24,000 bases of DNA. It comes from an uncultured Conexibacteraceae bacterium. Its GTDB lineage: Bacteria > Actinomycetota > Thermoleophilia > Solirubrobacterales > Solirubrobacteraceae. This document shows positions 1-13,438 of the stretch, one piece after another. The DNA lies in assembly GCA_963761675.1 (NCBI GenBank), contig CAVXIA010000015.1, positions 62,054-86,053 on the forward strand, given 5' to 3'. Below the pieces are notes generated by a model, which had not been told where the DNA came from, did no database searches, and saw only the letters and a list, made by a program, of their open reading frames with translations. How positions within the stretch are numbered: the first letter of the stretch is position 1; each line of letters opens with the position of its first letter. Made by a program: the position numbers and the translations under genes.

Positions 1-1337
1 CGCTGTTCCTCGCGGAGACCCCGGATCTCGCACTGACGGCGGTGGTCGCGTTGCGGGGCGAGCTCGTGCTTCTGCAGACGCTGGCCCAGGAGACCGGTTG
101 CGTCAGATGGCGAGCACTGGCAGATTGGTGGCGCGCAACGGCATGGCCGGAGCGTGAGCTGCTCGAACGCGATGATCGAGCCCAGATCGATCGGTGCTTG
201 GAGGGCCACAGCCTGACCAGGCCGGACGCGGATCTGATCGACCGATCGGTGTCCGGGCTCGACGTGTTCGCGATTCCCTATGGGCCCGTGAGATCCGGGA
301 TCTTTGAGGCGATCCAGTTTCAGATCGAGACCGGCGGCGAGGACATCACACACCTGCAGACCCGGCCGTTTTTCAAGCACCGCGGCATCGAAGCACGCTT
401 CACCGGTATGGACCCGGAGAACGCCGTGATCGTCGCCGAGCGTGTGGCGGGGATCGCCAGCAACGCCTACGCAAGCGCTTTCTCGGAGGCCGTGGAGCGG
501 GTGGCGGGCGTGAGCGCGCCCCGCCGTGCGCAGCGCTGGCGCGCGGTCTATTGCGAGCTCGAACGGATGGCCTGCCACCTGGACGTGATCGCCAAGGAGG
601 CGGAGACCACGGCGCTGTACGTCGGGCAGGCGCGGTTCCAGATTCTCAAGGAGAGCGTGCAACGGATACGGGCTCAATTGACGGGCAGCCGGTTCGGACG
701 AGGCATGATCGTTCCGGGTGGTGTTCGGGCCGAAGGTGAGCTGAGTCTCGAAGACCTGAGCACGGGGCTTGACGCGCTCGCACGCGATCTGCGACGTGAC
801 TGCCGCATGTTCCTGGGTACCCCGTCGATGACAGATCGCCTGATCGGCAGCGGTCGTCTTGACCGCGCGGTGACAGAGGAGCGGTGCGCTGTGGGTCCGC
901 TCGCACGCGGCTCGGGGATATCCACTGACGCGAGACACGAGCGCCCATACGGTGCGTACGCGCGCCTGGGGGTGCGGGTGATGACCGATCGTGGCGGTGA
1001 CGCGATGGCCAGAATGAGCGTCCGGTTCGCTGAACTATTCGAGTCGCTCCGCCTTGTGCGCCAGACGACGGAGCAGCTTCGCCGCCACGATGGTGAGCTC
1101 CTCGCCGCGATCCCTGAGCACCTCACCGGCACGGCGTGCGGCTGGGCCGAGGCGCCGCAGGGCGAGCTGGTGTTCTGGGTGGAGATGCGGAACGGCGCCG
1201 TGCACCGCGTGCACATCGCTTCACCATCGCTGCGGAACTGGGCGCTGTTCGATGGCGCGTTCCCGAATGATGTGCTGACCGACTTTGCGTTCATAGAGCA
1301 CAGCTTCGGTCTCACCCCCGCGGGAGCTGATCGCTGA
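1..1337 (+). CDS. HycE/NuoC-NuoD-like [NiFe]-hydrogenase large-subunit homolog lacking the Ni-Fe cysteine ligands (5' partial; the frame is open to the window edge)
   Basis: The frame of ORF 42..1337 stays open back to nt 3. A NuoC-like 'AWPERELLERD' segment is followed by NuoD/HycE motifs: 'GPVRSGIFEAIQFQIETGGEDI', 'FFKHRGIE', 'AVGPLARGSGISTDARHERPYGAY', 'AEAPQGELVFWV' and 'IASPSLRNW'. The L1 position reads 'AERVAGIASNAYA' and the C-terminus reads 'FIEHSFGLTPAGADR', so neither has the cysteines. Confidence 0.8.
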   Translation, partial: LFLAETPDLALTAVVALRGELVLLQTLAQETGCVRWRALADWWRATAWPERELLERDDRAQIDRCLEGHSLTRPDADLIDRSVSGLDVFAIPYGPVRSGIFEAIQFQIETGGEDITHLQTRPFFKHRGIEARFTGMDPENAVIVAERVAGIASNAYASAFSEAVERVAGVSAPRRAQRWRAVYCELERMACHLDVIAKEAETTALYVGQARFQILKESVQRIRAQLTGSRFGRGMIVPGGVRAEGELSLEDLSTGLDALARDLRRDCRMFLGTPSMTDRLIGSGRLDRAVTEERCAVGPLARGSGISTDARHERPYGAYARLGVRVMTDRGGDAMARMSVRFAELFESLRLVRQTTEQLRRHDGELLAAIPEHLTGTACGWAEAPQGELVFWVEMRNGAVHRVHIASPSLRNWALFDGAFPNDVLTDFAFIEHSFGLTPAGADR

Positions 1338-1960
1338 TGCTCGAGTGGATCTACCGCGGCCTCAGCAAAGGCCGGATCACAACCACCTACCCACACCGGG
1401 CAGAACACGGCCCCGCTGGCTTCGAGGGCACTGTCGAGATCCTGGCAGCGGGCGAGCGCGAGCGCGCCGCGACCGCGTGCTCTGAGGGGGCGATCGTCGT
1501 GATCGGGGATCCCGCCCGACTCTCGAGTGATGCCTCCGGCCTGCGCCGCTCGATTCATGTGCGCCACATCGACTGCGGTTCCGACGGGTCGGAGGAGTGG
1601 GAGATACATGCGTTGTGGAACCCGCATTACGACATCCAGCGACTGGGGTTCTTCCTCACCAACGCCCCTCGGCACGCCGACGTTCTGTTGGTGACGGGAC
1701 CCGTCACCACACCGTTGCGAGAACCGCTTCGGCGCACCTGGGAGGTCATGCCCGCGCCGAAGGCGCTGATCGCCGTCGGCGACGACGCCTGCGGCATCGG
1801 GTTGCATGCGGACAGAGCAGGCGGGCTGACGGCCGGAGGCGTCGACGGTGTCCTGACAGTCGACGTATATGTGCCCGGCACGCCGCCACCGCCGATCATG
1901 ATCATGCAGGGACTACTGCTTGCAGCCGGCGTTCACACCCCAAGGCAGGTGGCAGCATGA
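1337..1960 (+). CDS. HycG/NuoB-like small-subunit homolog with an N-terminal HycF-like stub; Fe-S ligands largely substituted
   Basis: 'SIHVRHIDCGSDGSEEWEIHALWNPHYDIQRLGF..APRHADVLLVTGPVT', 'KALIAVGDDACGIG', 'GGVDGVLTVDVYVPGTPPPP' are collinear with NuoB/HycG motifs. The N-terminal 'GLSKGRITTTYPHRAEHGPAGFEG' resembles the HycF/NuoI N-terminus. The start overlaps the upstream stop (TGATG at 1335-1339). Confidence 0.8.
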   Translation: MLEWIYRGLSKGRITTTYPHRAEHGPAGFEGTVEILAAGERERAATACSEGAIVVIGDPARLSSDASGLRRSIHVRHIDCGSDGSEEWEIHALWNPHYDIQRLGFFLTNAPRHADVLLVTGPVTTPLREPLRRTWEVMPAPKALIAVGDDACGIGLHADRAGGLTAGGVDGVLTVDVYVPGTPPPPIMIMQGLLLAAGVHTPRQVAA

Positions 1961-3936
1961 ACGTCCTTTTTGCCATCGGAATGAGCCTGCTCGCGCTGGC
2001 CATACCGGTGGCCTGGATATCGCCTTCGACCGCCGGCCCCAGGCTGGGTTCGATCTGCTCGGCGGCCGGCTGTCTGCTGCTTGTAGCTGTTGGGCTTGCG
2101 GCCGCGCTCGGGCGCAGCGAGCCGGTTGTGAATCTCGGATCATGGATCGGGTTCGGTCACAGCGCACTTCGAGCCGACGGACTCGCCGGCATCTTTCTCG
2201 CGCTCACGGGGATCACCGGCGCTGCCGTATCGCTTGCCTACGCTGAGCTACCGGCTGGGAAATGGCTGACGATGCTCTCGAGCGCTCTGATTCTGTTCGT
2301 GGTGGTCGCGATCGGATCAGACAACGGGTTTCTGTTCTTCCTTGCCTGGGAGGCGATCACCGTCTGCGTGTACCTGATTGCAAGCGCCGGCCGCACACAC
2401 GAGGATCTGGTCGGCGGTTACCTGACGGGCGGGCTGGCGAAGCTCGGCGGTGCCGCCCTGCTGGCCGCGTTCGGGTTGCTCTACGGGCATACGCACAGCT
2501 TCTCCCTCGAGGTCTGGCGGCACGCGCACCTCTCCGCGGGAACGCGCGACCTGCTGTTCGCGCTATTCCTCAGCTGCTTCGCGACGAAGGTCGGAGTCCT
2601 TCCGTTGCAGGGCGGACTCCCCGCCGGATACGGGTCGGCCCCGCGGCTCGGGGCCGCGTCATTGTCGGTCGCGTTGTGTGCGGGGTTCTACGGACTCTGG
2701 CGATTCACGTTCGACGTGCTTGGCCCCCTGCCGACGGGATGCGGAGATGCGCTGCTGATCATCGCCTCCCTCACCGCGGTCACGGGGGTCACATACGCGC
2801 TGACACAGAATGACATGCGCGGATTCCTCGGCTACTCGACGGTCGAGCACGCCGGCGTGGCATTGGTCGGATTCGCGGTCGCGCTGCTCGGGCATGCGGC
2901 GCACCAGCCGAAGCTCGCCGCCATCGGCCTTCTCGCGTGCACGCTCCAGGTCTGCGCGCACAACCTCTCAAAGACGCTGTCGCTGATCAGCATCGACCGT
3001 GTGATCTATGCGACTGGAAGGCGAACGATCGACCCTCTCGGCGGGATCTCGCGACTACTGCCGGTCACAGCGGCAACATCCGGGGTCGCCGCGCTCACGC
3101 TGGCCGCGATCCCGCCTCTGGGCGGGTTTGTCAGCGAATGGTTCACGTTCGAGGCGCTGTTGCAGGGCTTCCGCATGCCGACACTGCTGGCACGCTTGCT
3201 CTGCGCTCTGGCGGCGGCGATCCTGGCCTTGACCGCCGGGCTCGGGTTGCTCGCTTTTGCGAAGTACTACGGCTTCGTCTTCCTCGGTCGCGCGCGTGAA
3301 AACCTTGGTGAGGTGCGTGAGCCTTCGAGATGGCCGCTTGGGGCGGGGGCCCTGGCGGTGGTGGTCCTGTTCCTGGGTGCGGCTGCGCCGTGGGAGATAC
3401 ATGTGATCGGAGCTGGCCTGCGCCCTCTGCTCGGATTTGATCTTTCCGCGAGCACGATCAGTCACCCGCTCGTTCTCGGGCCGGTGTTCCAGAACTTCTC
3501 GGTCCTGGACCCAACCTGGCTATGTGTCGTGCTGCCGTGTTATGCGATCGTCGCCGCGACGATCGCCTTCGGCGCGGACAGGCGTCGCGGCGCGCGCCGC
3601 GCCCCGGTCTGGGTGACCGGCAGCGGCGCTGAGCTCGCGGCCGTGCAATACCGGCCGTCGGCGTACTCGAACCCCATGCGCGTGATCCTTCGGGGCCCGC
3701 TCGGTTTCCGACGCCGTCTGTCACCCGTCGCCGGCGACGGCGCCGTGGGGCACCTCGTGCTCGAAACCCGGGTCGTCTTGGTCATCGACCGTTACCTCTA
3801 TCGACCGGCCGCCACGGTTGCGTTGCGGATTGCCGAGCGCGTACGCGCCACCCAATCCGGACGGCTGTCCGTCTATCTGCTGTACATGCTGACGGCCCTG
3901 CTGATCGCCCTGTCCCTCGTCCCCATTCTGCACTGA
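1957..3936 (+). CDS. HycC/HyfB/NuoL-type antiporter-like membrane subunit (proton-conducting membrane transporter family)
   Basis: Polytopic hydrophobic protein of 659 aa from ATG 1957 (ATGA overlap with the upstream stop). 'GFLFFLAWEAITVCVYLI', 'LGGAALLAAFGLLYG' and 'GLWRF' are typical of NuoL/M/N-like subunits. The C-terminal 'VWVTGSGAELAAVQYRPSAYSNPMRVIL' resembles the HycC/HyfB tail. The track ORF start at 1597 is an R-rich off-gene leader. Confidence 0.85.
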   Translation: MNVLFAIGMSLLALAIPVAWISPSTAGPRLGSICSAAGCLLLVAVGLAAALGRSEPVVNLGSWIGFGHSALRADGLAGIFLALTGITGAAVSLAYAELPAGKWLTMLSSALILFVVVAIGSDNGFLFFLAWEAITVCVYLIASAGRTHEDLVGGYLTGGLAKLGGAALLAAFGLLYGHTHSFSLEVWRHAHLSAGTRDLLFALFLSCFATKVGVLPLQGGLPAGYGSAPRLGAASLSVALCAGFYGLWRFTFDVLGPLPTGCGDALLIIASLTAVTGVTYALTQNDMRGFLGYSTVEHAGVALVGFAVALLGHAAHQPKLAAIGLLACTLQVCAHNLSKTLSLISIDRVIYATGRRTIDPLGGISRLLPVTAATSGVAALTLAAIPPLGGFVSEWFTFEALLQGFRMPTLLARLLCALAAAILALTAGLGLLAFAKYYGFVFLGRARENLGEVREPSRWPLGAGALAVVVLFLGAAAPWEIHVIGAGLRPLLGFDLSASTISHPLVLGPVFQNFSVLDPTWLCVVLPCYAIVAATIAFGADRRRGARRAPVWVTGSGAELAAVQYRPSAYSNPMRVILRGPLGFRRRLSPVAGDGAVGHLVLETRVVLVIDRYLYRPAATVALRIAERVRATQSGRLSVYLLYMLTALLIALSLVPILH

Positions 3937-4376
3937 TGTTTCAACGAATCCTGCTCGCTTGGGACGGCTCCGACATCGCCCAGCGCGCCCTCGACGTGGC
4001 CATCGACGTCACCCGCCGTTACGACGCCGAGCTCGTTGCCGTCGCCATCGCATACTCGCCCGCACACGCCGAGACCAAGGCCGACCGCGAGGAGACGGCC
4101 GACGCTGCACACCGGTACCTCAGTCGTACCTTCGACGAGGTTGCCGACCGTGCGCAACGCGCCGGTGTCGATGTCTCCCTCGAGATCATCGACGGAGACA
4201 GCCCCGCCCGCGCGCTCCTCGATTACGCGCACCGGCACGCATTTGACCTGATCGTGTGCGGGCACCACCACAGCGGCCGCGCCGGTCGTCTGCTGCTCAA
4301 GGGTGTAGCCCCCGAGCTGATCGAGGATGGCTGCCCGACGCTGGTCGTGGGCGATGAGGACCCCCTGGCGCCTTGA
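3936..4376 (+). CDS. Universal stress protein (UspA family)
   Basis: 'ILLAWDGSDIAQRALDVAIDV....AELVAVAI', 'DLIVCGHHHSGRAGRLLLKGVAPELIEDGCPTLVV' gives the typical USP architecture. The ATG overlaps the upstream stop (TGATG at 3934-3938). Confidence 0.8.
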   Translation: MFQRILLAWDGSDIAQRALDVAIDVTRRYDAELVAVAIAYSPAHAETKADREETADAAHRYLSRTFDEVADRAQRAGVDVSLEIIDGDSPARALLDYAHRHAFDLIVCGHHHSGRAGRLLLKGVAPELIEDGCPTLVVGDEDPLAP

Positions 4377-5452
4377 ACGACGATTGCCTCAAACTCACGA
4401 CGTACTTCGGGGAGCGGGACCGAACCGACCGCGGTCTCCTGGCCGACGACCTCATGGCCGTCTACGGCGACCATCACGTGGCGGCCGGCATCCTTCTACG
4501 GGGTGCAGAAGGATTCGGCCGGCTCCACCACCTGCACACCGACCGGCTTCTGACGCTGTCCGAAGATCTCCCGGTTGTCTCGATCGCCGTCGACGAGCGC
4601 GCCCGCATCGAGCTGCTGCTGCAAGAGCTGCTTCAAATCAAGCGTCGCGGGCTCATAACCCTTGAACGGGCGCGGCTGTTGTCCGGAGAGATAAGGCAGG
4701 TGCAGCTGCCCGATGAGTTTGGGGAGGCCACGAAGCTGACGGTCTATCTCGGACGCCAGGATCGCGCAGGTGACGCTCCGGCCTACGTTGCGCTCTGTGA
4801 CCTCATGTACCGCCGCGGCCTGGCTGGGGCGAGTGTCTTTCTCGGCGTCGACGGCACGCGTGGCGGCCGTCGAGCGCGCGCGAGGTTGTTCGCTCGCAAC
4901 GCCGATGTACCGATGATGCTGATCGCCGTCGGGTCCGGAGAAGGGATCGCAGAGGTGCTTCCGGAGCTTGGCGGACTGCTCCACGCGCCCCTGATGACAC
5001 TGGAGCGGGTGCGGGTCTGCAAGCGCGACGGCGAGCTGCTCGCAAAGCCGCATGAGCTGCCGGCGACGGACGAGCATGGCCTGGGGATGTGGCAGAAGCT
5101 CATGATCTACACGTCGAACGTCGCGGCGCAACATGACCGCCCTTTGCATATGGAGATCATCCACCGGCTGCAGGCCGAAACCGAGGCAGCCGGCGCCACC
5201 GTGCTACGCGGGATGTGGGGCTACCACGGCGACCATGCGCCACACGGCGACCGCCTTTTGCAGGTCCGACGTCACGTGCCAGTCTGCACGATCGTCATCG
5301 ACCGTCCTGATCGGATCGCTCGGTCGTTTCAGATCATCGACGAGATCACCGCAACGCACGGCCTCGTGACAAGCGAGATGGTTCCGGCGGCACGGGCCAT
5401 GAGCGAAGCTCACATGCGCGGCGGTCTGCGGCTCGCCAGACATCGGTTCTGA
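4373..5452 (+). CDS. Protein with three tandem DUF190 (COG1993, PII-like) domains
   Basis: Three internal repeats of about 105-115 aa each begin with a 'KLT(T/V)Y' or 'KLMIY' strand. Each contains an 'A(G/A)xxLRG..G(F/Y)G' or 'GASVFLGVDG' segment and ends with a 'L(I/M)TLER' or 'LVTSEM' strand, the DUF190 pattern. The TTG start overlaps the USP stop (TTGA at 4373-4376). Confidence 0.75.
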   Translation: MNDDCLKLTTYFGERDRTDRGLLADDLMAVYGDHHVAAGILLRGAEGFGRLHHLHTDRLLTLSEDLPVVSIAVDERARIELLLQELLQIKRRGLITLERARLLSGEIRQVQLPDEFGEATKLTVYLGRQDRAGDAPAYVALCDLMYRRGLAGASVFLGVDGTRGGRRARARLFARNADVPMMLIAVGSGEGIAEVLPELGGLLHAPLMTLERVRVCKRDGELLAKPHELPATDEHGLGMWQKLMIYTSNVAAQHDRPLHMEIIHRLQAETEAAGATVLRGMWGYHGDHAPHGDRLLQVRRHVPVCTIVIDRPDRIARSFQIIDEITATHGLVTSEMVPAARAMSEAHMRGGLRLARHRF

Positions 5453-5483
5453 CCGCGGTCGGTGGCTCCCCTGTCTAGAGTTC

Positions 5484-5891
5484 ATGGCGATGACCTTGCG
5501 GACCAGCGGAATCAGGCAGCCGAGCATCTGGGCGAGCGTCGTCAGCCACGACGCGCCCGGGTTGCGCGGCTGGCTGCTTGCACTCGGATTCACACAGGAT
5601 CTGATGATCCCAGGGGAGAGCGAGGGTTCGATCCACCACTGCCAACTCGATTGGCCCGAGGGTGGTCGTGTGCTGCTCTCGAGCACCGACGAGCGTCCAA
5701 CCCCCTGCCGGCCCGGTACCAGCTCGCTGCACGTCGTCACCGCAGACCCTGACGCCGTGATGGCTCGCGCAGTCTCGCTGGGAGCGGTTGTGATTCACCC
5801 ACTCACCGATCAGACCGACTACCCGTCACGCGACTGCACGATCGCGGACCCTGACGGGAATCATTGGACATTCGCGACCTTCGCCGGATGA
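5484..5891 (+). CDS. VOC (glyoxalase/bleomycin-resistance/dioxygenase) family protein
   Basis: Size of 135 aa, with 'LRGWLLALGFTQD' near the N-terminus and a C-terminal 'DYPSRDCTIADPDGNHWTFA', the pattern typical of small VOC-fold proteins. Confidence 0.65.
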   Translation: MAMTLRTSGIRQPSIWASVVSHDAPGLRGWLLALGFTQDLMIPGESEGSIHHCQLDWPEGGRVLLSSTDERPTPCRPGTSSLHVVTADPDAVMARAVSLGAVVIHPLTDQTDYPSRDCTIADPDGNHWTFATFAG

Positions 5892-7048
5892 GGCCGAGCC
5901 CTGCTGCCAGCTCGCGCTCGTCTGTCGGCATGGTCGGCGCCGGACAGCTTGCCCGGATGGCCTGGCAGGCCGCGATCTCGCTGGATCTCGAGCTGGTCTG
6001 CCTCGGTGCGCAGGGCGATGCCGCCGCGCGGGCCGGGGTTTCGCTGCTTGAGGGGTCGGGTCGGGACGGATCGGCCCTGGGCGTGCTTGCGAAGCATTGC
6101 GATGTGCTGACGTTCGAGCATGAACTCGTGGACCTCGCGGCTGTGGCTGGGCTGGAGGCTGGAGGAACGCCGGTGCGCCCCTCCAGCGCGGCGCTGGAGC
6201 TGGCCGTGGACAAGCTCCGGCAGCGGAGGACATTGTCGGACTTGGATGGGGTTGCTGTTCCGGCACACGCTTCCGCCGGCGCCGTCACCGACGTCCACGC
6301 CTTCGCCGCGGCGCATGGATGGCCAGTGGTTCTGAAGGCGCGCAGTGGTGGGTACGACGGTCGAGGCGTCTGGATGTGCATCGACCGGAGGGATGCCGAA
6401 GCGGCCTTCGCCGAGGCGACCACGGCCGGCCTCGAACTCTACGTCGAGGAGGCGGTTGAACTCGCTCAGGAGCTTGCCGTCATCGTCGCACGCTCACCCT
6501 CGGGTGATCTAGCCGTTTACGCACCGGTCGAGACCCAACAGGTCGATGGCATGTGCCGCTCGGTGCTGATGCCGGCCGGAATCCCGGAGACGATGGCCCT
6601 GGAGGTCGAGAACCTGGCGCGGACGCTCGCCGAGCACATCCGGCTGGAGGGGCTCATGGCCGTTGAGCTGTTCGTGACGCGCGATCGTCGTCTGCTGGTG
6701 AACGAACTGGCTCTGCGGACCCACAACACGGGACACCTTCACACCGAGGCCTCCGTCACCTCGCAGTTCGAGCAGCACCTGCGCGCGGTCCTCGACCTGC
6801 CCCTCGGGCTCACGACCCCGGTCGCGGCGGCGGCCGCGATGGTCAACGTGGTGGGACCGCGTGACGGTTCGGACCCGGCATCGCGCTTGGCGGACGCGCT
6901 GAGCGTACCGGGGGCCCGTGTGCATCTTTACGGCAAGAGCGCACGGCCCGGACGCAAGCTCGGGCATGTCACGGTCTGCGCCGACACGCCTGAGGAGGCG
7001 CTTGCTCGGGCGCGGGAGGCAGCCGATAGGCTGGAGCGGGATGTCTGA
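5888..7048 (+). CDS. purK: N5-carboxyaminoimidazole ribonucleotide synthase
   Basis: '[12 protein letters not shown]', 'VLTFEHE', '[19 protein letters not shown]', '[11 protein letters not shown]', 'GRKLGHVTV' form the ATP-grasp PurK signature, and the gene sits next to purE. ATG 5888 forms an ATGA overlap with the VOC stop. ATG 5930 is an alternative start. Confidence 0.9.
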
Positions 7049-7556
7049 ACCGATCGTCGGCGTGGTCATGGGGTCTGACAGCGACCTGAGCGTCATGAGC
7101 CAGGCCACCGCAGTGCTCGATGACCTCGGTGTGCCCGTGGAAACGCGGGTGGTGTCGGCCCACCGCACCCCGGTCGAGATGATCGCCTACGGACAGCAGG
7201 CTGAGGCGCGGGGTCTGGCCGTGATCATCGCCGGCGCCGGTGGCGCGGCTCACCTTCCCGGGATGCTGGCCGCGGTCACCTGCCTGCCGGTGATCGGTGT
7301 ACCTGTGTCGCTCAAGAATCTCGATGGGCTGGACAGTCTGTTGTCGATCGTGCAGATGCCCAAGGGCGTTCCGGTCGCGACCGTCGCCATTGACGGTGCT
7401 CGTAACGCCGGACTGCTGGCCGCCAGGATCCTCGCGGTGCGGGACCTCGATCTGCGCGAGCGGCTGCGTGGTTTCGCCGACGCACAGGCCCAGGCCGCAC
7501 TTGAGGCCGACGCGCGGGTCCGGCAAGGGGAGACCTTCCCGCGGAAAGGTTCTTGA
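7041..7556 (+). CDS. purE: N5-CAIR mutase (class I PurE)
   Basis: '[14 protein letters not shown]', 'VVSAHRTP', '[15 protein letters not shown]', 'PVIGVPV', '[16 protein letters not shown]'. The ATG at 7041 overlaps the purK end by 8 nt. Confidence 0.92.
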
Positions 7557-7628
7557 GACCTCAGGTATCCGGGCTGGGACCCGGCGGCAGCGCTGGCCGC
7601 GAGCCGTGCCTCGCTTGGCACGCCGAGC

Positions 7629-7871
7629 TCAGTGTGGACGGCGCTCGCTCCGCGCGTCGAAAGCTCGATGGCGACGGCACCAGTCGCGAAGCCGGCCAGG
7701 TTGCTCAGCCAGCGGCCGTGCCGGTCGCGCCATCGACCTGGCAGACGCTGCGTCACCGTCACCTGGCCTGCTGGTCGACAGGTGCGTGACGAACACGACC
7801 TCGTCGTAGCGGGCGCGGGGCGCCGGCATGCTCGCAATCAGTTGCAGTTGCGTGGTCGAAGCGATGAACAA
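7629..7871 (-). CDS. Hypothetical small protein; frame integrity uncertain
   Basis: TTG at 7871 lies 6 nt downstream of a perfect AGGAGG (complement of 7878-7883). The LacI-type palindrome sits 4 nt further upstream. The first ~35 codons look coding, but after that an overlapping frame looks more protein-like. Confidence 0.3.
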   Translation of the reverse strand: MFIASTTQLQLIASMPAPRARYDEVVFVTHLSTSRPGDGDAASARSMARPARPLAEQPGRLRDWCRRHRAFDARSERRPH

Positions 7872-7887
7872 GTTCTACCTCCTAGGG

Positions 7888-7901
7888 TGCAACCGGTTGC
7901 A
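7888..7901. promoter_or_regulatory. LacI-family operator-like perfect palindrome TGCAACCGGTTGCA (copy 1)
   Basis: Perfect 14-bp palindrome matching the TGNAANCGNTTNCA pattern of LacI/GalR operators. It lies just upstream of the SD of the small minus-strand ORF and is identical to the copy at 8991-9004. Confidence 0.55.
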
Positions 7902-7982
7902 AAGAACGGGACGAGAGCAGCCCCGCATCAGGCAGGGGGCGAATGGGGGAGACCGGCGGTGCGAAGAGTGATATCGGAGCTG

Positions 7983-8990
7983 TCATCGGGCGGAGTCCCT
8001 GACGACCAGCTCAGCGGGAAGCGATGTGCTGGTGATGGCACCCGTCTGCACGCGCTGAACCACGCCATCGGCGAGCAGTCGGCCGGCGAGCATCGCGTCC
8101 TGGCGAATCGTTGTCAGCGACGGCTTGACGTGGGCCGCGAGTGGCACATCGTCGTAGCCGACCACCGCGATGTCTCCCGGGACGCTGCGGCCGCTGTCGG
8201 CGATCACCTCCATCGCGGCGATCGCCATGACGTCGCTGTTCACGAACACCCCGTCGATCTCGGGTGCGCTGTCGAGCAACTCCGCCATTGCGACGCGGGC
8301 CGAGCCCTCCGACCACGCGGTGTGGGTGATCAAACCGGGATCCGGTGTGCGTCCGGCTGCCGCAAGGGCGGCCTCGTAGCCGCGCTGCCTCTCGGCGACC
8401 TCAGCCGCGTGCTTGGGGCCGCCGAGAAACGCGACCTTCTGGCGCCCGATGCCCAGCAGGTGCTCGGTCGCAAGGCGGCCTCCGCGGACGCTGTCGCCGC
8501 TGACTGAACAGAAGGAGCCATCGGAAGATGGCTGTCCCCAGACGATGAAGGGTGCGTCGGCGTCCCGCAGGGCGCGCATCTGCTGACGCGTGCACTGTGC
8601 CTCGAGCATGATGAAGCCGTCGGCGCGCCCGGTTTCCAGGTAGCGGCGCGGCCAGGAGACGTCGCTGGGCCCGACGTGAATCATCAGCAGGTCGTAATCG
8701 CTCCTGCCGAGTCCGGCGGAGATCCCGGTCATAAGTTCGAGCATGAAGGCGTCTGGCACGACGCTGCCGGCCTTGTAGCCGTAGGCGACCAGCGCGATCG
8801 CCCCACTCTGCTGGAGGCTCAAGCGGCGGGCCCGAGCGTCGACCTCGAAGCCGTGCTCCTTGGCGATGGCGCGCACCAACTCCTTTGTCTCAACGCTGAT
8901 CACGGGGCTGTCGTTGAGCGCCCGCGACACGGTGGATTTGGAGACCCCGGCCAGGCGGGCGATGTCGGCTATAGAGTTCACGCTCGCCAT
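7983..8990 (-). CDS. LacI family transcriptional regulator
   Basis: N-terminal HTH 'SIADIARLAGVSKSTVSRALNDSPVISVETKELVRAIAKEHGFEVDARARRL' followed by a periplasmic-binding-protein-like sugar-binding core ('IALVAYG', 'DGFIM', 'VAFLGGP', 'DIAVVGYDD'). Start is either ATG 8990 or ATG 9005. The track start at 9032 is less likely. Confidence 0.9.
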   Translation of the reverse strand: MASVNSIADIARLAGVSKSTVSRALNDSPVISVETKELVRAIAKEHGFEVDARARRLSLQQSGAIALVAYGYKAGSVVPDAFMLELMTGISAGLGRSDYDLLMIHVGPSDVSWPRRYLETGRADGFIMLEAQCTRQQMRALRDADAPFIVWGQPSSDGSFCSVSGDSVRGGRLATEHLLGIGRQKVAFLGGPKHAAEVAERQRGYEAALAAAGRTPDPGLITHTAWSEGSARVAMAELLDSAPEIDGVFVNSDVMAIAAMEVIADSGRSVPGDIAVVGYDDVPLAAHVKPSLTTIRQDAMLAGRLLADGVVQRVQTGAITSTSLPAELVVRDSAR

Positions 8991-9004
8991 TGCAACCGGT
9001 TGCA
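8991..9004. promoter_or_regulatory. LacI-family operator-like perfect palindrome TGCAACCGGTTGCA (copy 2; probable autoregulatory site)
   Basis: Identical 14-mer directly abutting ATG 8990 and overlapping ATG 9005 of the LacI-family gene. Confidence 0.6.
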
Positions 9005-9261
9005 TGGTACCGCCAATCGCGGCGGACGGCAACCGGCCACGGTGCGCCGCGGCAAATCAGCGCCCGACGGCAACCTGCGAGGGCTGCCTCGTGGGAAATC
9101 CCTTCCGGGCCTGGCGCGGATACCTCTCCAGGTCTCTGCTGGTGGAGTCTGCGGACGGGTGTCTCGCGCCGGCGGGCTGGGGCGGTCGATGGCCCCCGGT
9201 AGTGCGGCACGGCCTTCCCGGCCTCTCCGGGCGCGAGCGGGGCTTGGTGTGAGGGCGCTAT

Positions 9262-9301
9262 GCGGGGTGGGGCGGCCGCGCGAGGCGGCGCCCCACCCCG
9301 C
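9262..9301 (-). terminator. GC-rich hairpin downstream of the PLDc_N/SHOCT gene (terminator-like, no U-tract)
   Basis: GCGGGGTGGGGCG (9262-9274) is the perfect reverse complement of CGCCCCACCCCGC (9289-9301), with a 14-nt loop. The hairpin begins 7 nt past the stop codon at 9308-9310. Confidence 0.5.
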
Positions 9302-9307
9302 CCCAGA

Positions 9308-9718
9308 TCAGCTGCTGCTGCCGCTCAGGGCCTTTGCCTTGAGCGTGTCGAACTCCTCCTGCGTGATCGTGCCGCTGTCAAGCAGCTGCTTGGCGTTGGC
9401 GATCTCGCTCGCCGAGCCGCTGCTGCCGGCTGTCTGGCGAACGTAGTCGTCGAACTGCGCCTGAGCTTTCTGAGCGTCCTTGTTCTGACGATCGGCCATG
9501 CCGTTGTGGTAGGCGATCAGGTAGATCAGGACTCCCAGGAACGGGAGGATGATGATGAATATGACCCAGAAGGCCTTGCCCCACCCGGATATGTCCTTGC
9601 GGCGGATGAGGTCCATGAAGACCGTAATCGCGATCCAGATCCAGACGATGAACGCGAAGAAGATCAGCATTGACCACAGCACACCGAGGAACGGATACGA
9701 CGTTGCGGTGATAAGCAT
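9308..9718 (-). CDS. Small membrane protein with a PLDc_N-type N-terminal domain and a C-terminal SHOCT domain
   Basis: Two TM helices with 'FWVIFIIILPFLGVLIYLIAY' (PLDc_N pattern). The C-terminal 'AKQLLDSGTITQEEFDTLKAKAL' is the SHOCT pattern. I chose ATG 9718 as the start; the track start at 9784 adds a non-hydrophobic leader. Confidence 0.75.
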   Translation of the reverse strand: MLITATSYPFLGVLWSMLIFFAFIVWIWIAITVFMDLIRRKDISGWGKAFWVIFIIILPFLGVLIYLIAYHNGMADRQNKDAQKAQAQFDDYVRQTAGSSGSASEIANAKQLLDSGTITQEEFDTLKAKALSGSSS

Positions 9719-9944
9719 TTGGTTGGACTTACTCCCAGAATGGTTGTGGGAATTAACGGGATAGGACCTCCATCCCAGAGCCAACAGGGGCGAGGTCCCG
9801 ACTTTGTGATGCAGGACACTACCGCTTGGCGACGTCGAGTGTCTTCGGTGTGGTCCCGCAACGTCCAGGGCAGGGCCTCCGTGTGTCCCAGGGGCGCGGC
9901 CCCGAAGCGCGGAACCATCTGCGGCATGCCGGGGGTTATATGGG

Positions 9945-10154
9945 GTGATGAACGATTTTGATGAGTTCGTTGCCGGCAGCGTCGAGCCGCTGCTGAGGAC
10001 GGCCTACCTGATCACGTGGGACGGCGGCGATGCGGGCGCCGACCGCGCCGCCCTGCCCGAGCGGAGCCCGCTGCAGCTTCGGCTATGGCTCGAGCGGCGG
10101 GCCGGGCGCCGCCGCCGCCGGTACATCGTCTACGAGCGTCACAGGCTCGTCTGA
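9945..10154 (+). pseudogene. Probable remnant of an ECF (SigE-family) sigma factor gene
   Basis: The first ~28 codons, 'MNDFDEFVAGSVEPLLRTAYLITWDGGDA', match the characteristic N-terminus of actinobacterial ECF sigma factors (FxxFVxxxxxxLLRTAYLLTGD). The remainder is R-rich, non-sigma-like, stops at 69 aa and overlaps the RDD gene tail. Confidence 0.3.
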
Positions 10155-10712
10155 CTGAGCGCCTGAAGTCCCCGGGGTGGCCAGCGGGCCACCCCGGGGG
10201 GGCTGACCATGCTCGGAGTCGACAGCCTGCTGGCGGAGTTGCTCCCGGACGGCCTTCTCGGTCTCCTCGTCGATGTCCCAGCGCACCACGGTATCGGCCA
10301 TACGATCCTGGAATCCGCGCCGCCGCGGGTCGGTCAATATCGGTATCAGGCCGGCGCCGAGCGGGATGATCGCCAGGGTCAGGCCAATGAATCGGCGCAC
10401 GGCCTGCGTGAAGGTGACATCACCTCCGCCGACGCCGCTGAGCACGCGAATCCCGAGGATGCGATTGCCGACCGTCTGGCCGGTCAGTGCCCAGAAGGTC
10501 ACGAAATAGAACAGGCTCCATACCCACCAGGCTGCCGCGCCGAGCACAGCCCCGACGATGTCGATGTTCCCGCTCACGCCCAGCAGCGATGCGATCAGGT
10601 TGACCGCGCCGCCGAGCAGCACCGCAATCGCGTTGACGACGAGGGCGTCGATCAGAAACGCAACCCCGCGGGTCACGAGACCGACGTAGCCGACCGGCGC
10701 GGTACGAGTCAC
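10083..10712 (-). CDS. RDD family membrane protein
   Basis: 'GLVTRGVAFLIDALVV', 'TGQTVGNRILGIRV', 'RRRGFQDRMADTVVV' form the RDD-domain pattern with three TM segments, followed by a low-complexity C-terminal tail. The GTG start overlaps the upstream stop (GTGA). Confidence 0.8.
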   Translation of the reverse strand: MTRTAPVGYVGLVTRGVAFLIDALVVNAIAVLLGGAVNLIASLLGVSGNIDIVGAVLGAAAWWVWSLFYFVTFWALTGQTVGNRILGIRVLSGVGGGDVTFTQAVRRFIGLTLAIIPLGAGLIPILTDPRRRGFQDRMADTVVRWDIDEETEKAVREQLRQQAVDSEHGQPPRGGPLATPGTSGAQSDEPVTLVDDVPAAAAPGPPLEP

Positions 10713-11380
10713 TCGCCGGCCTGGGGCTCTCGTCGCCCGAGCAGGCGGCGGGCGATGCGCTCGGCAACATCATCCGCGACGACCGTCCGTGTTCGGACCC
10801 CGACGGCGACATCGTCCGCCAGGCCGACCGTCTGGCGGCGGAGCACCGCACGCAGCTCGGGCGAGCTCGTGACGTACTCGAGCACCTGTTGCATCTCCTC
10901 GCTCGCAAGCAGACGCGCGGTGATCTCTTCGAGCATGCGGCTGTCCATGACGCGATCGATCAAGCGATCGAGTCCGGGATCGTCGAGGGCGTTGCCGATC
11001 AGCGCCTCTGTGGCCGGGTGGTTGATCACGACGCTCACGATCCGGTCGAAGGCGCCGGAGCGCAGCAGCCGGTCGAGCAGCTCATCGCCGAGCCCTGAGC
11101 GGGCGAACTCGTCGGCCAGTGCCCGCGACAGCTGCGCCGCGAGCCGACGCGCCTGCGCAGCGGCGTCGGCGGTCACGAGCACGCCGTCCTGGCCCCATCT
11201 GTAGGAGACGGCGTCGGCGCGAGCACGCACCGGTGCCCACGGAGACGAGTTCCAGATCGCGGCCGCCGGCCATGCCGCAGCCGCCAGTGCCCGTGCGCCG
11301 ACGGCGACCGGGCGGCGCGAGCGTCGGGCCACGTTGGCCGTCGCGCCGACCACGACATACGGGATGGGAGCGCGTTTCAA
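10709..11380 (-). CDS. Hypothetical protein (helical, Leu/Arg/Asp-rich), translationally coupled to the RDD gene
   Basis: Long ORF with consistently G/C-rich third positions. I recognise no family. The exact start is uncertain (TTG 11380 or a downstream GTG). Confidence 0.55.
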   Translation of the reverse strand: MKRAPIPYVVVGATANVARRSRRPVAVGARALAAAAWPAAAIWNSSPWAPVRARADAVSYRWGQDGVLVTADAAAQARRLAAQLSRALADEFARSGLGDELLDRLLRSGAFDRIVSVVINHPATEALIGNALDDPGLDRLIDRVMDSRMLEEITARLLASEEMQQVLEYVTSSPELRAVLRRQTVGLADDVAVGVRTRTVVADDVAERIARRLLGRREPQAGE

Positions 11381-11477
11381 GGCGATGACGATCGGGTGGT
11401 TGTCGATGCCCCAAAGGGTACGCCCGCAGCGAAGAGCTTGGGCGGCCGACGCTCCTCGGTACGAATCTCGGCCATGC

Positions 11478-12272
11478 TCAGCTGGTCAGATGGACCGCGG
11501 CCTCCGGTGTGGCCACGTGGAAACTGAAGCTCTCCTGGAGGTAGAGGTTGACCTGCTCGGCATCGTGTGAGTCGTAGCCCAATGAGATGTCCTGGCCGCT
11601 GTCGAAGAGGAAGTCACCGCCGCGGCGGCTGAGCAGCACAGCGCCCTCGATGCCGGGAACCCACACGATCGGGCCTCCGAGCAGCAGTGACACGTGTTCT
11701 CTGAGCGGGTAACCGCCCGGCACGGGAGCGGTGCCCAGCAACCGGTAGTGATCCTGGCCGGCACCGAGTGCGTACGGTCCGTCGACTCCCGATCCGAGCA
11801 GCAATTCGATCGCCGCCGTCACACGTTCTGCGTAGTTCTCCGCTTTGATGCGCTTCAGCATCGCGTGCGGGGTGGCCGCGATCACCCCGTTGAACGTTCC
11901 GGCCCAGCCGCCGAAGACGGCGTCACCTTCGGCCCGTGCGATCTCGCGAGCGGCGGTGTCGAGCGGACCCAGATCGGCATCGTCGGCGCCGCGATCGACG
12001 TCCTGGAGCTCGCTTCGCGAAAGGCTGAAATCGGCGCGGAGCTCGATCAGCGGCAGGACGCGTCGTCGCAGCGCAGTCACCCCTTCGGGGCTGCCTTCGA
12101 TCGCCTCGACCCGCCCAAGGTTCGTCGATGAGTGTGACCAACCGCGAGGGCCGTCGAAGTCGACCAGCTTGCGCGCACCCAGAGCCGGGGTCAGGCGCTC
12201 GCGGGCCTCGTGGTCGAGCAGCTCCCAGCCGGCATCGCTGATCGGCGCGTGCGAACGAAGCAGATGATTCAC
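11478..12272 (-). CDS. Family 1 encapsulin nanocompartment shell protein (linocin M18-like)
   Basis: At 264 aa it is collinear with mycobacterial Cfp29-type encapsulin: 'LLRSHAPISDAGWELLDHEA', 'LIELRADFSLSRSELQDVDRGADDADL', 'GVDGPYAL', 'GYPLREHV', 'SRRGGDF', 'LGYDSHD...VNLYLQESFSF'. A GTG start sits in a GTGA overlap with the DyP stop. The SD GAGAGGAG lies 7 nt upstream. Confidence 0.92.
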   Translation of the reverse strand: MNHLLRSHAPISDAGWELLDHEARERLTPALGARKLVDFDGPRGWSHSSTNLGRVEAIEGSPEGVTALRRRVLPLIELRADFSLSRSELQDVDRGADDADLGPLDTAAREIARAEGDAVFGGWAGTFNGVIAATPHAMLKRIKAENYAERVTAAIELLLGSGVDGPYALGAGQDHYRLLGTAPVPGGYPLREHVSLLLGGPIVWVPGIEGAVLLSRRGGDFLFDSGQDISLGYDSHDAEQVNLYLQESFSFHVATPEAAVHLTS

Positions 12273-13282
12273 GCTGATGCTCCTCTCAGACCGCCGATCC
12301 CCAGCGATCCGTCGTGGTTTGTCGTCTCAGGTTCGATGACGGCGGCGCTCGGCTCGAGCGGGGGATCTGCCATGCCCGCGAGCTGATCCGTGGTGGGCAC
12401 GAAGAACAGTGTTCCCGTCACGGCGGTGGAGTAGTCGAGCACGCGGTCGTGATTGCCGGGCGGGTTGCCGATGAACATGTTGCGCAGCATCTGTTCGATC
12501 ACGCCCGGGTCAGACGCGTAGCCGATGAAATACGTGCCGAACTCGCCTGCCCCAACGCGGCCGAAGGGCATGTTGAAACGCACGATCTCGAGCTCCTCTC
12601 CGGTCTCATCGACGATCGTGTTGAGTGCGACGTGCGAGTTCGATGGCTTGACGTCGTCAGGCAGCTCGATATCGCTGAGCTTCGTGCGTCCGATCACGCG
12701 CTCCTGTTCCTCGACCGAAAGGGAGTCCCAGGCCGCCAGGTCGTGCAGGTACTTCTGGACGATCACGTAACTGCCCCCGGCGAACCCCGGATCCTCGGCG
12801 CCGATCGTGACCGCGGTCCTCGCCGCTTCGCCCTCCGGGTTCTCGGTGCCGTCGACGAAGCCGAGCAGGTCGCGCTCGTCGAACGAGCGGAATCCATGGA
12901 CCTCGTCGACGATTCGGACCAGCCCGCCCAGCCGTTCGGCGATCCGCTGCGCGAGCTCGAAGCAGAGATCAAGCCGGCGCGCACGGATGTGGAAAAGGAG
13001 ATCGCCCGGGGTGGAGGCCGCCGTGTGGGCTGCGCCGGAGAGCGGGACGAAGCGATGCAGCCCCAGCGGCTTCGGGCACAGAGGGCCCAGGCGATCCCAG
13101 AGGTCTGAGCCGATCCCCACCACGCAGCTGAGGCACGCCTCGGGGATGCGGAAGCCGACGGAGCGCTTGAGACCGGGAATGTCGGCGAGCGCGTCACGGA
13201 GCTGATCCTCGTCACCGGCCGGGGCGATCATCACGAGAAAGATCGCCGCCTCCGTCGATGGTTGAAGGATCGTCTGCTGCAT
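12269..13282 (-). CDS. DyP-type (dye-decolorizing) peroxidase carrying a C-terminal encapsulin targeting peptide
   Basis: 'AAIFLV', 'GFVDGTENP', 'GGSYVIVQKYLHDL', 'SHVAL', 'IVRFNMPFG', 'GTYFIGY' are DyP motifs. A flexible P/A/E linker is followed by 'DGSLGIGGLRG'. Start is ATG 13282 (MQQTILQP...) or GTG 13315. Confidence 0.9.
   Translation of the reverse strand: MQQTILQPSTEAAIFLVMIAPAGDEDQLRDALADIPGLKRSVGFRIPEACLSCVVGIGSDLWDRLGPLCPKPLGLHRFVPLSGAAHTAASTPGDLLFHIRARRLDLCFELAQRIAERLGGLVRIVDEVHGFRSFDERDLLGFVDGTENPEGEAARTAVTIGAEDPGFAGGSYVIVQKYLHDLAAWDSLSVEEQERVIGRTKLSDIELPDDVKPSNSHVALNTIVDETGEELEIVRFNMPFGRVGAGEFGTYFIGYASDPGVIEQMLRNMFIGNPPGNHDRVLDYSTAVTGTLFFVPTTDQLAGMADPPLEPSAAVIEPETTNHDGSLGIGGLRGASA
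12272..12313 (-). other. Encapsulin cargo-loading (targeting) peptide at the DyP C-terminus
   Basis: The last 14 codons encode DGSLGIGGLRGASA, matching the SLxIGSLKG-type targeting peptide consensus of DyP cargo proteins. Confidence 0.8.
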
Positions 13283-13438
13283 CACGCTCGCGCCCGTCTC
13301 GTCGCTCACTCGCACTCACTGTAAGACTTCGCGGCGATCGACGGCAACGCTGGGGGAGGATTCTGGCTGACATCGAATCAGTACAGCCGGGGCCGCGCCC
13401 AGTCCTGAGCGCCCGTCGGCGCCTGCTTACATGGAGAC

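Follow-up and report, generated by a model that had tools for sequence, protein, structure and literature searches.

A NiFe-less, hydrogenase-related operon of Solirubrobacterales as a candidate fluoride-stress system

The first 5.45 kb of a 24,000-nt stretch of contig CAVXIA010000015.1 from an uncultured Conexibacteraceae bacterium (the whole stretch is hereafter called the window) contain five co-directional open reading frames (ORFs) on the + strand, designated E-G-L-USP-3xDUF190. E, G and L resemble subunits of formate hydrogenlyase (FHL), and the two genes that follow encode a universal stress protein (USP) and a protein with three PII-like DUF190 domains. The locus raises the question of what a hydrogenase-like membrane complex does when its Ni-Fe ligands have been replaced. 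Complexes of this kind, termed Ehr (energy-converting hydrogenase-related), are relatives of group 4 hydrogenases which lack the Ni/Fe ligands and whose function is not known (PMC6349859; PMC7894505). Comparison with related loci indicated that the complex is an Ehr-type member of the fluoride regulon, corresponding to the 'formate hydrogen lyase' class noted behind the crcB motif in 2010 (PMC2864571). On balance we favour, with some reserve, the view that the Solirubrobacterales share a conserved fluoride-stress operon, of which the five genes make up the 3' part, and that this operon encodes an Ehr-type, redox-independent H+/cation translocator.

Operon structure and fluoride riboswitch leaders

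The homology of E, G and L to FHL and group 4 hydrogenase subunits, proposed in an initial annotation made from the sequence alone, was confirmed by Pfam matches (PF00346/PF00374, PF01058 and PF00361) and by best PDB matches to HycE, HycG and HycC. The five proteins were assigned to the Pfam families Complex1_49kDa/NiFeSe_Hases, Oxidored_q6, Proton_antipo_M, Usp and 3x DUF190; E matched PF00346 with an E-value of 5e-32, HycE (7Z0S_E) with 2e-39 and MbhL (6CFW_L) with 7e-29. The best NCBIfam matches were NuoD, NuoB and hydrogenase-4 subunit B, all far under the family cut-offs. Stop/start overlaps between consecutive genes were found as annotated (TGATG at 1335-1339, ATGA at 1957-1960, TGATG at 3934-3938 and TTGA at 4373-4376), and third codon positions are rich in G and C (GC3 of 0.78-0.80 in each of the five genes, with a G+C content of 64-71% across the window). 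The calls of the five ORFs stood as well, except that E is not complete, having no in-frame stop from nt 3 and being open at the 5' end of the window. The full-length E protein (P0001, 100% identical) has 500 amino acids (aa) and includes a NuoC-like N-terminal domain. An exact-protein look-up returned a single other record with the same proteins, a 4.7 kb Logan contig likewise starting inside E, and a promoter and terminator scan of window positions 1-6000 gave nothing beyond chance level.

About 50 related loci were gathered by exact-protein look-ups and one genome scan, and their genes were mapped by tblastn. In the relatives, which belong to the Solirubrobacterales, the operon has the order [fluoride riboswitch]-H-Q-E-G-L-USP-[CrcB-CrcB]-3xDUF190, with a near-universal six-gene core, H-Q-E-G-L-USP, present in about 45 loci and the CrcB-CrcB-3xDUF190 segment in about half of the loci. 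The N-terminal part of H (~543 aa) matched Pfam NADHdh (NuoH/HycD-like) and its C-terminal 200 aa matched HyfE, while Q (~505 aa) is a HyfF-like second antiporter subunit. A HycD/NuoH-like partner and a further antiporter-like gene had been predicted to lie off-window; both were found 5' of E in every relative, the former fused to a HyfE-like domain, and this region is not visible for the window genome. The suggested assignment to an Ehr-type (NiFe-less, group-4-hydrogenase-related) module was borne out by PF00346 homology in the absence of Ni/Fe cysteines, by NuoB- and antiporter-like genes in the window and by NuoH-like genes in relatives. The operon shares the gene order of Escherichia coli hyf (C+E, F, G, H/I), with hyfB shifted to the end and with hyfC-hyfE and hyfH-hyfI each fused. 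In locus L045 (Solirubrobacterales palsa_651), a more distant Ehr-like operon that lacks USP occurs twice in tandem (1-6322 and 6555-13768; 35-52% identity), and a canonical-looking fluoride aptamer at 6443-6525 stands in front of the second copy.

At the Rfam gathering score, the fluoride riboswitch model RF01734 gave ten matches in seven related loci, all in their flanks, and two covariance models built from these matches identified more than 60 copies in about 0.8 Mb. Every locus covering the region 5' of H has an element on the sense strand, separated from the start codon by 28-41 nt or, in a single locus, by 87 nt. In each of the 35 operon leaders that were aligned, GAUGGAGUCC...AACCGCC...GGCUGAUGGCUCC is present, and the leaders are laid out, from 5' to 3', as the P1 5' strand, GAUGGAGUCC, the P1 3' strand, a variable hairpin of 25-65 nt, (G)AACCGCC, a loop, GGCUGAUGGCUCCUUUCGC and GCGAAAGGAG, with the start codon about 12 nt further on. 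Judged by sequence, these motifs can be recognised as the signature nucleotides of the fluoride aptamer; the Solirubrobacterales leader differs from canonical fluoride riboswitches in having the extra hairpin, which separates P1 from the AACCGCC segment. The aptamer pairs (P1, pseudoknot and P2) were 94.7% paired, whereas slid controls reached 27-52%; P1 (UA versus CG) and the pseudoknot (GC versus AU) both showed compensatory changes. The 3' tail of the leader, CUCCUUUCGC, is exactly complementary to the Shine-Dalgarno (SD) sequence GCGAAAGGAG, and the 10-bp anti-SD helix was 99.4% paired across the leaders, an arrangement with the predicted architecture of a translational ON switch.

The loci share with the known RF01734 regulon its aptamer leaders and its CrcB, USP, pyrophosphatase, enolase, HAD, MutS-like and NUDIX neighbours. 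Other riboswitch-driven genes nearby encode MutS-domain-V, inorganic pyrophosphatase and HAD proteins, typical of the fluoride regulon, and further ones in related loci encode an ABC ATPase, a major facilitator superfamily (MFS) protein, formate-tetrahydrofolate ligase (FTHFS) and DUF6062 proteins. Tandem fluoride aptamers, canonical then insertion-bearing, precede the operon in L002 (6650-6721 and 6770-6900) and L006 (5767-5838 and 5901-6047). In L011 (6447-6521, -) and L027 (6573-6647, -), the FTHFS gene (567 aa) has a separate fluoride riboswitch and is oriented divergently to the Ehr operon; in other loci the divergent riboswitch drives a protein of 513-574 aa, which in L006 has a MutS domain V and in L019 and L036 looked similar by eye. 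Cys-rich DUF6062 proteins (240-454 aa, with repeated CPxC) recurred behind fluoride riboswitches (L034, 17365-17439, -; L039, 3640-3716, +; L015, 14463-14537, -).

A weak match to our own riboswitch models (16-17 bits) was obtained in the window at 4336-4404 (+), across the USP/DUF190 junction (GGGCGAUGAGG...CGCC..GAAC...UUGCCUCAAAC). It was rejected as a relic riboswitch, given that its 3' half codes for the conserved CLKL of DUF190, that the P2 hairpin is absent and that relatives have no riboswitch between USP and crcB.

Beyond the order, homologs were sought by tblastn of annotated plasmids. Plasmid pJCM12687 of Mycobacterium branderi carries a 40.9-bit Rfam fluoride riboswitch followed by genes for a NUDIX protein, a NuoH-like and a HyfE-like protein, an antiporter, a NiFe-less large subunit, a ferredoxin/NuoB-like fusion and a second antiporter; an enolase gene, a gene for a 360-aa triple DUF190 protein and a divergent, riboswitch-controlled USP gene lie alongside. 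A conjugative plasmid of Burkholderia cenocepacia has six Rfam riboswitches in 17 kb, including one of 55.9 bits directly 5' of a NuoH-like gene, with a single-domain DUF190 gene immediately 5' of this operon riboswitch, pyrophosphatase and HAD genes nearby and crcB about 10 kb off. On an Alicyclobacillus plasmid, a riboswitch precedes a lone NuoCD-like gene beside genes for CrcB and a two-domain DUF190 protein. The M. branderi plasmid (L052) carries in addition a 53.6-bit Rfam fluoride riboswitch (2591-2651, -) aimed at PE/PPE/PPE genes (1-2284, -) about 300 nt downstream; a fluoride-controlled PE/PPE pair would be unusual and might be a mycomembrane channel.

CrcB, USP and the triple DUF190 protein

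The genes downstream of USP were compared over non-redundant loci. USP was followed by CrcB-CrcB-3xDUF190 in 16 loci, by 3xDUF190 alone in four (the window, L028, L033 and L035) and by neither in 20; six loci were too short to judge, and CrcB alone was found in none. CrcB1 and CrcB2 of the relatives passed the NCBIfam fluoride-exporter cut-offs. In a neighbour-joining tree of L, the window was nested in a clade whose other members all have CrcB and DUF190. Its nearest relatives, L049 and L051, encode the same short G of 207-210 aa and have the order USP-(small transmembrane ORFs)-CrcB-CrcB-DUF190; the stop of USP is separated there from the start of DUF190 by 70-590 nt of small-ORF or intergenic sequence plus the crcB pair (about 760 nt). 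The TTG start of the window DUF190 gene occupies the position homologous to the ATG of relatives, and the C-terminal tail of the window USP, GDEDPLAP, is unlike that of relatives, a change attributable to the loss of crcB. From this comparison, the direct TTGA coupling of USP and DUF190 appears to be the scar of a recent, lineage-specific crcB deletion.

The initial annotation, which had taken this coupling at face value, therefore read too much into it, since the CrcB pair sits between the two genes in the nearest relatives; it had also missed the fluoride context, evident in relatives from the riboswitch leader and from the same CrcB-CrcB pair. Linkage of USP and DUF190 is nonetheless not a peculiarity of this genome, as the co-occurrence map showed it in relatives, with USP after L in nearly all loci. 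No CrcB was found by tblastn to be encoded in the 24 kb window. Several relatives have, in the interval from USP to crcB, one or two short paralogous ORFs of 92-100 aa (L049, 14530-15116; L005, 14671-14949). Their products are hydrophobic in the C-terminal half, are probably membrane proteins and had no family match; the ORFs are missing together with crcB in the window.

The DUF190 protein contains three PF02641 stretches (4.5e-67), each of which matched TM0021 (1O51) and PH1503 (2DCL) by sequence. An AlphaFold model computed from a 49-sequence alignment (AF2; a single-sequence run with pLDDT 34 was discarded) was compact, with a pLDDT of 81 and a pTM of 0.85, and consisted of three beta-alpha-beta-beta-alpha-beta units. 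Single repeats superposed in Foldseek on 1O51 with a TM-score of 0.82 and on 2DCL with 0.72-0.75. Loops of low confidence correspond in position from repeat to repeat (52-55, 171-175 and around 290-300) and may be T-loop-like. No whole-chain PDB match to the triple protein was found by Foldseek; the top whole-chain hits, sulfur oxygenase reductase and coproheme decarboxylase, had TM-scores of about 0.2 and were dismissed as not meaningful. The model suggests a single-chain pseudo-trimer of PII-like domains. Each repeat thus resembles the PII/GlnB-like proteins (GlnK-AmtB paradigm; 1O51, 2DCL) in fold, whereas the window protein fuses three mutually divergent repeats in one chain. Triple proteins of this kind are abundant, with 7941 of the 8000 candidates scored reaching E <= 1e-5 and nearly all of the 120 listed being about 358-360 aa long. 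DUF190 has been described as flJ in actinomycete fluorination clusters (PMC9173684) and has been speculated to modulate channels in the manner of GlnK (PMC3543383).

USP matched PF00582 over its full length (1.7e-21). Its ATP-motif region reads G-HHHS-G-RAGRLLLK-G-V (nt 4260-4310), with a spacing that deviates from the canonical motif, which we take to be G-x2-G-x9-G-(S/T). In Enterobacter cloacae FRM, uspA in a riboswitch operon was induced 120-fold by fluoride (PMC5533749).

These data bear on the model put forward in the initial annotation, that of a redox-independent, ligand-regulated ion machine. On this model USP and the triple DUF190 protein would bind to the Ehr complex and gate it in response to a nucleotide or metabolite; CrcB would then be no more than a neighbour. 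We consider this model unlikely, although it accommodates the four independent Solirubrobacterales lineages in which DUF190 adjoins the Ehr genes and crcB is missing, the M. branderi operon, which is followed by 3xDUF190 with no crcB annotated within 8 kb either side of the match, the B. cenocepacia arrangement, with DUF190 adjoining the operon riboswitch and crcB far off, and the position of USP after L. Against it, CrcB never occurs without DUF190 in the Solirubrobacterales, in 36 of 40 loci the two are gained or lost jointly, and in relatives the stop of crcB2 and the start of DUF190 overlap. Moreover, the 20 loci that have the Ehr-USP core without a nearby DUF190 imply that the complex does not need DUF190 in cis, and all contexts are fluoride-riboswitch contexts, so that a fluoride-independent ligand is not indicated. 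The partner of DUF190 may be either Fluc (CrcB) or Ehr, given a distribution in which it co-varies with CrcB in the Solirubrobacterales yet stays with Ehr in the four lineages and two plasmids that lack an adjacent CrcB.

Cofactor sites, selection and comparison with known complexes

Ligand positions were read from alignments to E. coli FHL (7Z0S: HycE, HycG) and to the membrane-bound hydrogenase (MBH) of Pyrococcus furiosus (6CFW: MbhL, MbhJ). In E, the L1 motif RVCGICG of HycE is replaced by RVAGIAS (nt 441-461) and the C-terminal DPCxxC position by DFAFIEHS (nt 1281-1304), so that all four NiFe Cys ligands are substituted, by A and A in L1 and by A and E in L2. The residue at the position of the complex I quinone-site Tyr (Nqo4 Y87) is Gly (RVAGIAS versus RLDYVSM), indicating that E does not provide a quinone site. 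In G, the CNGC of HycG/MbhJ at the N2 site is represented by D..E in CGSDGSEEWE (nt 1574-1603) and PGCPP by PGTPPP (nt 1874-1891), while the third N2 ligand is kept as C152 in GDDACGIG (nt 1778-1801), behind a two-residue insertion. G thus retains one of the four N2 cluster cysteines and E none of the NiFe ligands. Two further cysteines of G lie beside former sites: C80, at whose position E. coli HycG also has a Cys but MbhJ a Ser, and C48, the orphan 'CP' Cys of a ferredoxin motif. The latter belongs to the N-terminal 70 residues of G, a HycF/NuoI-like stub from which the CxxCxxC segment is deleted, leaving a single 'CP' Cys position (ACSEGAI, 1475-1495). The PDB alignments therefore confirmed the substitutions recognised earlier and restored no ligand cysteine.

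The substituted motifs are themselves conserved: ERVAGIAS is near-universal among related loci, LTDFAFIEHSF was found in 42 of 47 loci, GSDGxEEWE in 39 of 41 relatives and PG[S/T/A]PP in all 40 full-length G proteins. The N2-Cys replacements are uniform across the Solirubrobacterales relatives (Asp, Glu and Ser/Thr/Ala, plus the one kept Cys), which hints at a new use of the site.

Ni/Fe-coordinating cysteines are absent also from most related loci and from the M. branderi and B. cenocepacia homologs. The Fe-S sites of the small subunit, by comparison, form a gradient. Three sites are present in Burkholderia: its large subunit lacks NiFe cysteines, but in its small subunit the two ferredoxin motifs are intact and none of the four N2 cysteines is missing. 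One site (CILCGEC + CPTGAI) is present in 31 of 41 Solirubrobacterales and in M. branderi, whose fusion protein has N, D, I and A at the N2 ligand positions and one four-Cys motif. None is left in the window, L049, L051, L009, L014, L016, L022 and L037. The description 'cofactor-less' in the initial annotation hence fits the window lineage, with one Cys left at the aligned ligand sites, and does not extend to the family. G proteins without a cluster come in five lengths (183, 187, 190, 207-210 and 222 aa), which suggests that the ferredoxin segment was lost repeatedly without loss of the operon.

The Fe-S sets also provide arguments for a second alternative, in which the complex is still a redox enzyme that receives electrons through an unrecognised cofactor or partner and reduces a substrate in the E/G pocket, as in Mbx/MBS or the proposed formate dehydrogenase-Ehr systems. 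The two ferredoxin motifs and four N2 cysteines of the Burkholderia homolog, the four-Cys motif retained in most Solirubrobacterales G proteins and in M. branderi and the published view of Ehr complexes as redox-coupled (PMC6349859) all speak for it. We nevertheless judge it quite improbable, given that the window protein, with the ferredoxin segment deleted and three of the four N2 ligands gone, offers no traceable route for electrons to the E/G interface, that the apparently repeated loss of this segment left the operon in place, that the NuoD Tyr position is Gly and that no dehydrogenase or electron-input gene was found in the operons examined.

It is very unlikely, though conceivable, that the conserved N2 replacements and the emptied NiFe pocket form a site for a hard metal (Mg2+/Mn2+) or for a metal-fluoride or HF, which would make the peripheral arm a fluoride sensor or coupling site, the complex a fluoride-gated or fluoride-coupled ion translocator and 3xDUF190 its PII-type regulator. 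If true, this would be the first function assigned to any Ehr complex, and a complex-I-type machine would be driven or gated by ligand binding instead of redox chemistry.

The claim that the genes are not simply decaying was upheld by purifying selection on each of the five genes, with dN/dS of 0.07-0.22 at dS around 1 (Nei-Gojobori, against five relatives). A decaying remnant of formate hydrogenlyase or Hyf hydrogenase without present function, compatible with the loss of all catalytic ligands and with apparent frameshifts in seven related loci, is effectively refuted by this selection, by more than 1800 E homologs at E <= 1e-5 (the best 120 listed nearly all full-length with 67-78% identity, mostly from Solirubrobacteraceae metagenome-assembled genomes (MAGs)), by the conservation of the replacing residues, by the preserved coupling overlaps and by the confinement of the frameshifts to one MAG series. 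The frameshifts (L029, L034, L040, L043, L046, L047 and L048) split H, Q, E and L; they are probably assembly or sequencing errors and not pseudogenes, as all these loci come from a single, presumably long-read, series with isolate names MFD…. L retains Glu132, Lys211, His335/Lys339 and Glu394, aligned with the charged-chain residues of HycC/MbsH'.

The complex does not qualify as a group 4 [NiFe]-hydrogenase, its four NiFe Cys being replaced and its proximal cluster (CxxC to D..E, PGCPP to PGTPP) and ferredoxin CxxCxxC lost; nor as respiratory complex I, with Gly for Tyr in the NuoD-like E, N2 ligands lost and NCBIfam NuoD/NuoB scores far below cut-off. E. coli hydrogenase-4/FHL (7Z0S) supplied the best PDB matches, and HyfB, HyfF and HyfE the best NCBIfam matches of the operon; unlike that system, the window complex lacks the NiFe site, the Fe-S chain and the HycB/FdhF electron-input module, and no hyp or hycI maturation genes were found in the loci examined. 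EhrA-S of Geobacter sulfurreducens (GSU0739-45) resembles the window family in combining hydrogenase large- and small-subunit homologs with NuoH-, HyfE- and antiporter-like subunits in the absence of Ni/Fe cysteines. In contrast to the Geobacter complex, the window small subunit is also without the proximal/N2 cluster, the window lineage lacks the ferredoxin clusters and the relatives' operon stands under a fluoride riboswitch, with USP, CrcB and DUF190 and without a formate dehydrogenase partner. Mrp antiporters resemble the complex as membrane modules of several subunits, two of them antiporter-like, that contain no redox cofactor (L matched MrpA/MrpD at E about 1e-15), but the window family has NuoH-, NuoCD- and NuoB-like subunits, and no MrpE/F/G families were found in the window or related operons. 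By analogy, Mrp may be the closest model for how the cofactor-free version works. DabAB, to which the initial annotation had loosely compared the locus, is likewise a NuoL-like PF00361 membrane protein near a PII-like protein. The analogy failed, as no DabA (PF10070) partner was found among the window proteins or in related operons; further differences from DabAB are the presence of NuoH/CD/B-like subunits and a context of fluoride, not inorganic carbon. Rv0082-Rv0087 of Mycobacterium tuberculosis, which we take to be a related actinobacterial hyc-like cluster, was not used as evidence.

Proposed role in fluoride stress

The lack of any Ni-Fe or Fe-S site in the window proteins, together with the kept antiporter charged residues and purifying selection, indicates that the complex is not redox-driven. 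For the favoured reading, a fluoride-stress operon encoding an H+/cation translocator, we propose the following scheme. In the window genome, H, Q and a riboswitch leader would lie just off-window, as in relatives. Fluoride binding would free the SD sequence and turn translation on, and the 1-4 nt stop/start overlaps would hand translation down the operon. The complex itself may act as a secondary or conformationally gated H+/cation translocator, Mrp-like and with a vestigial peripheral arm, which would defend cytoplasmic pH and membrane potential during influx of hydrogen fluoride (HF), the potential in turn driving F- out through Fluc channels. Within this fluoride module, USP and the putatively pseudo-trimeric DUF190 protein would serve as accessory or regulatory partners.

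Several points weigh against this scheme. The window opens inside E, and the riboswitch, H and Q of its genome lie outside the visible sequence; an Rfam scan of the whole 24 kb window gave no match at gathering score and no fluoride riboswitch. The window lineage has lost the adjacent crcB, so that the local link to fluoride export is broken, though CrcB or CLC-F may exist elsewhere in the genome. The leader of L049 (6706-6852), the sole operon leader scored against Rfam's own RF01734 model, reached 11.5 bits, with a gathering score of 34. The low score is explained by the covariance model taking the inserted hairpin for P1, and insertion-bearing leaders (L049 and 34 equivalent loci) have likely been missed by standard annotation; fluoride binding by such leaders is itself a prediction from their nucleotides. 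The full (Burkholderia) or partial Fe-S sets suggest that the ancestral job was redox-linked, and the cofactor-free form may do something different or only part of that job. Furthermore, a cation/H+ antiporter normally imports H+, which offers no obvious help against acidification, and we know of no experiment that ties any Ehr complex to ion transport.

The statement in the initial annotation that no such system had been described was too strong. The FHL class behind the crcB motif, reported upstream of 'formate hydrogen lyase' genes in 2010 (PMC2864571), was discussed in a 2024 review, where its link to the fluoride riboswitch was explained as a metabolic shift to formate oxidation (PMC11139923), and USP in a fluoride-riboswitch operon has been documented experimentally (PMC5533749). 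In the literature searched, the fluoride riboswitch was never coupled with Ehr, hydrogenase-like or complex-I-like terms, and no recognition was found of these 'FHL' genes as NiFe-less Ehr, nor of the Fe-S erosion, the triple DUF190 partner or the insertion-bearing leader.

Related to complex I and to membrane-bound hydrogenases, Ehr complexes occur widely but are without a demonstrated function, and one large branch of them stands behind fluoride riboswitches (in Actinomycetota, Burkholderia and Alicyclobacillus), travelling with Fluc, DUF190, USP, enolase and pyrophosphatase genes. This linkage gives Ehr complexes an inducible physiological cue and simple phenotypes, namely fluoride minimum inhibitory concentration, internal pH and membrane potential. 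It also makes the label 'formate hydrogen lyase' in the fluoride regulon misleading, the class not being a hydrogenase. The reduction of Fe-S sites from three to one to none under purifying selection represents a natural experiment on a complex-I-type membrane arm without redox drive, a matter central to the coupling mechanism. Given the sub-threshold score of the L049 leader, fluoride regulons in soil Actinomycetota may be under-annotated.

Table 1. Features of the five-gene locus, in window coordinates
Feature	Position	Strand	Basis or remark
E, large subunit, NuoC+NuoD / HycE/HyfG-like	3..1337	+	3' 1335 nt of gene; PF00346 + PF00374 fragment, PDB alignments
G, small subunit, 207 aa, HycF/NuoI-like stub fused to NuoB/HycG-like domain	1337..1960	+	PF01058
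L, HyfB/HycC/NuoL-type antiporter-like membrane subunit, 659 aa	1957..3936	+	PF00361
USP, universal stress protein, 146 aa	3936..4376	+	PF00582; last gene of conserved core operon
Triple DUF190 (PII-like) protein, 359 aa, TTG start	4373..5452	+	PF02641 x3
DUF190 repeat 1	about 4373-4726	+	
DUF190 repeat 2	about 4727-5086	+	
DUF190 repeat 3	about 5087-5449	+	
Putative crcB deletion scar, USP stop overlapping DUF190 TTG	4355..4376	+	comparison with nearest relatives

Elsewhere in the window, at 11478-13315 (-), a gene for an encapsulin shell protein (Linocin_M18, 264 aa) immediately follows, and overlaps, a gene for a DyP-type peroxidase (348 aa), a classic encapsulin nanocompartment cargo pair.

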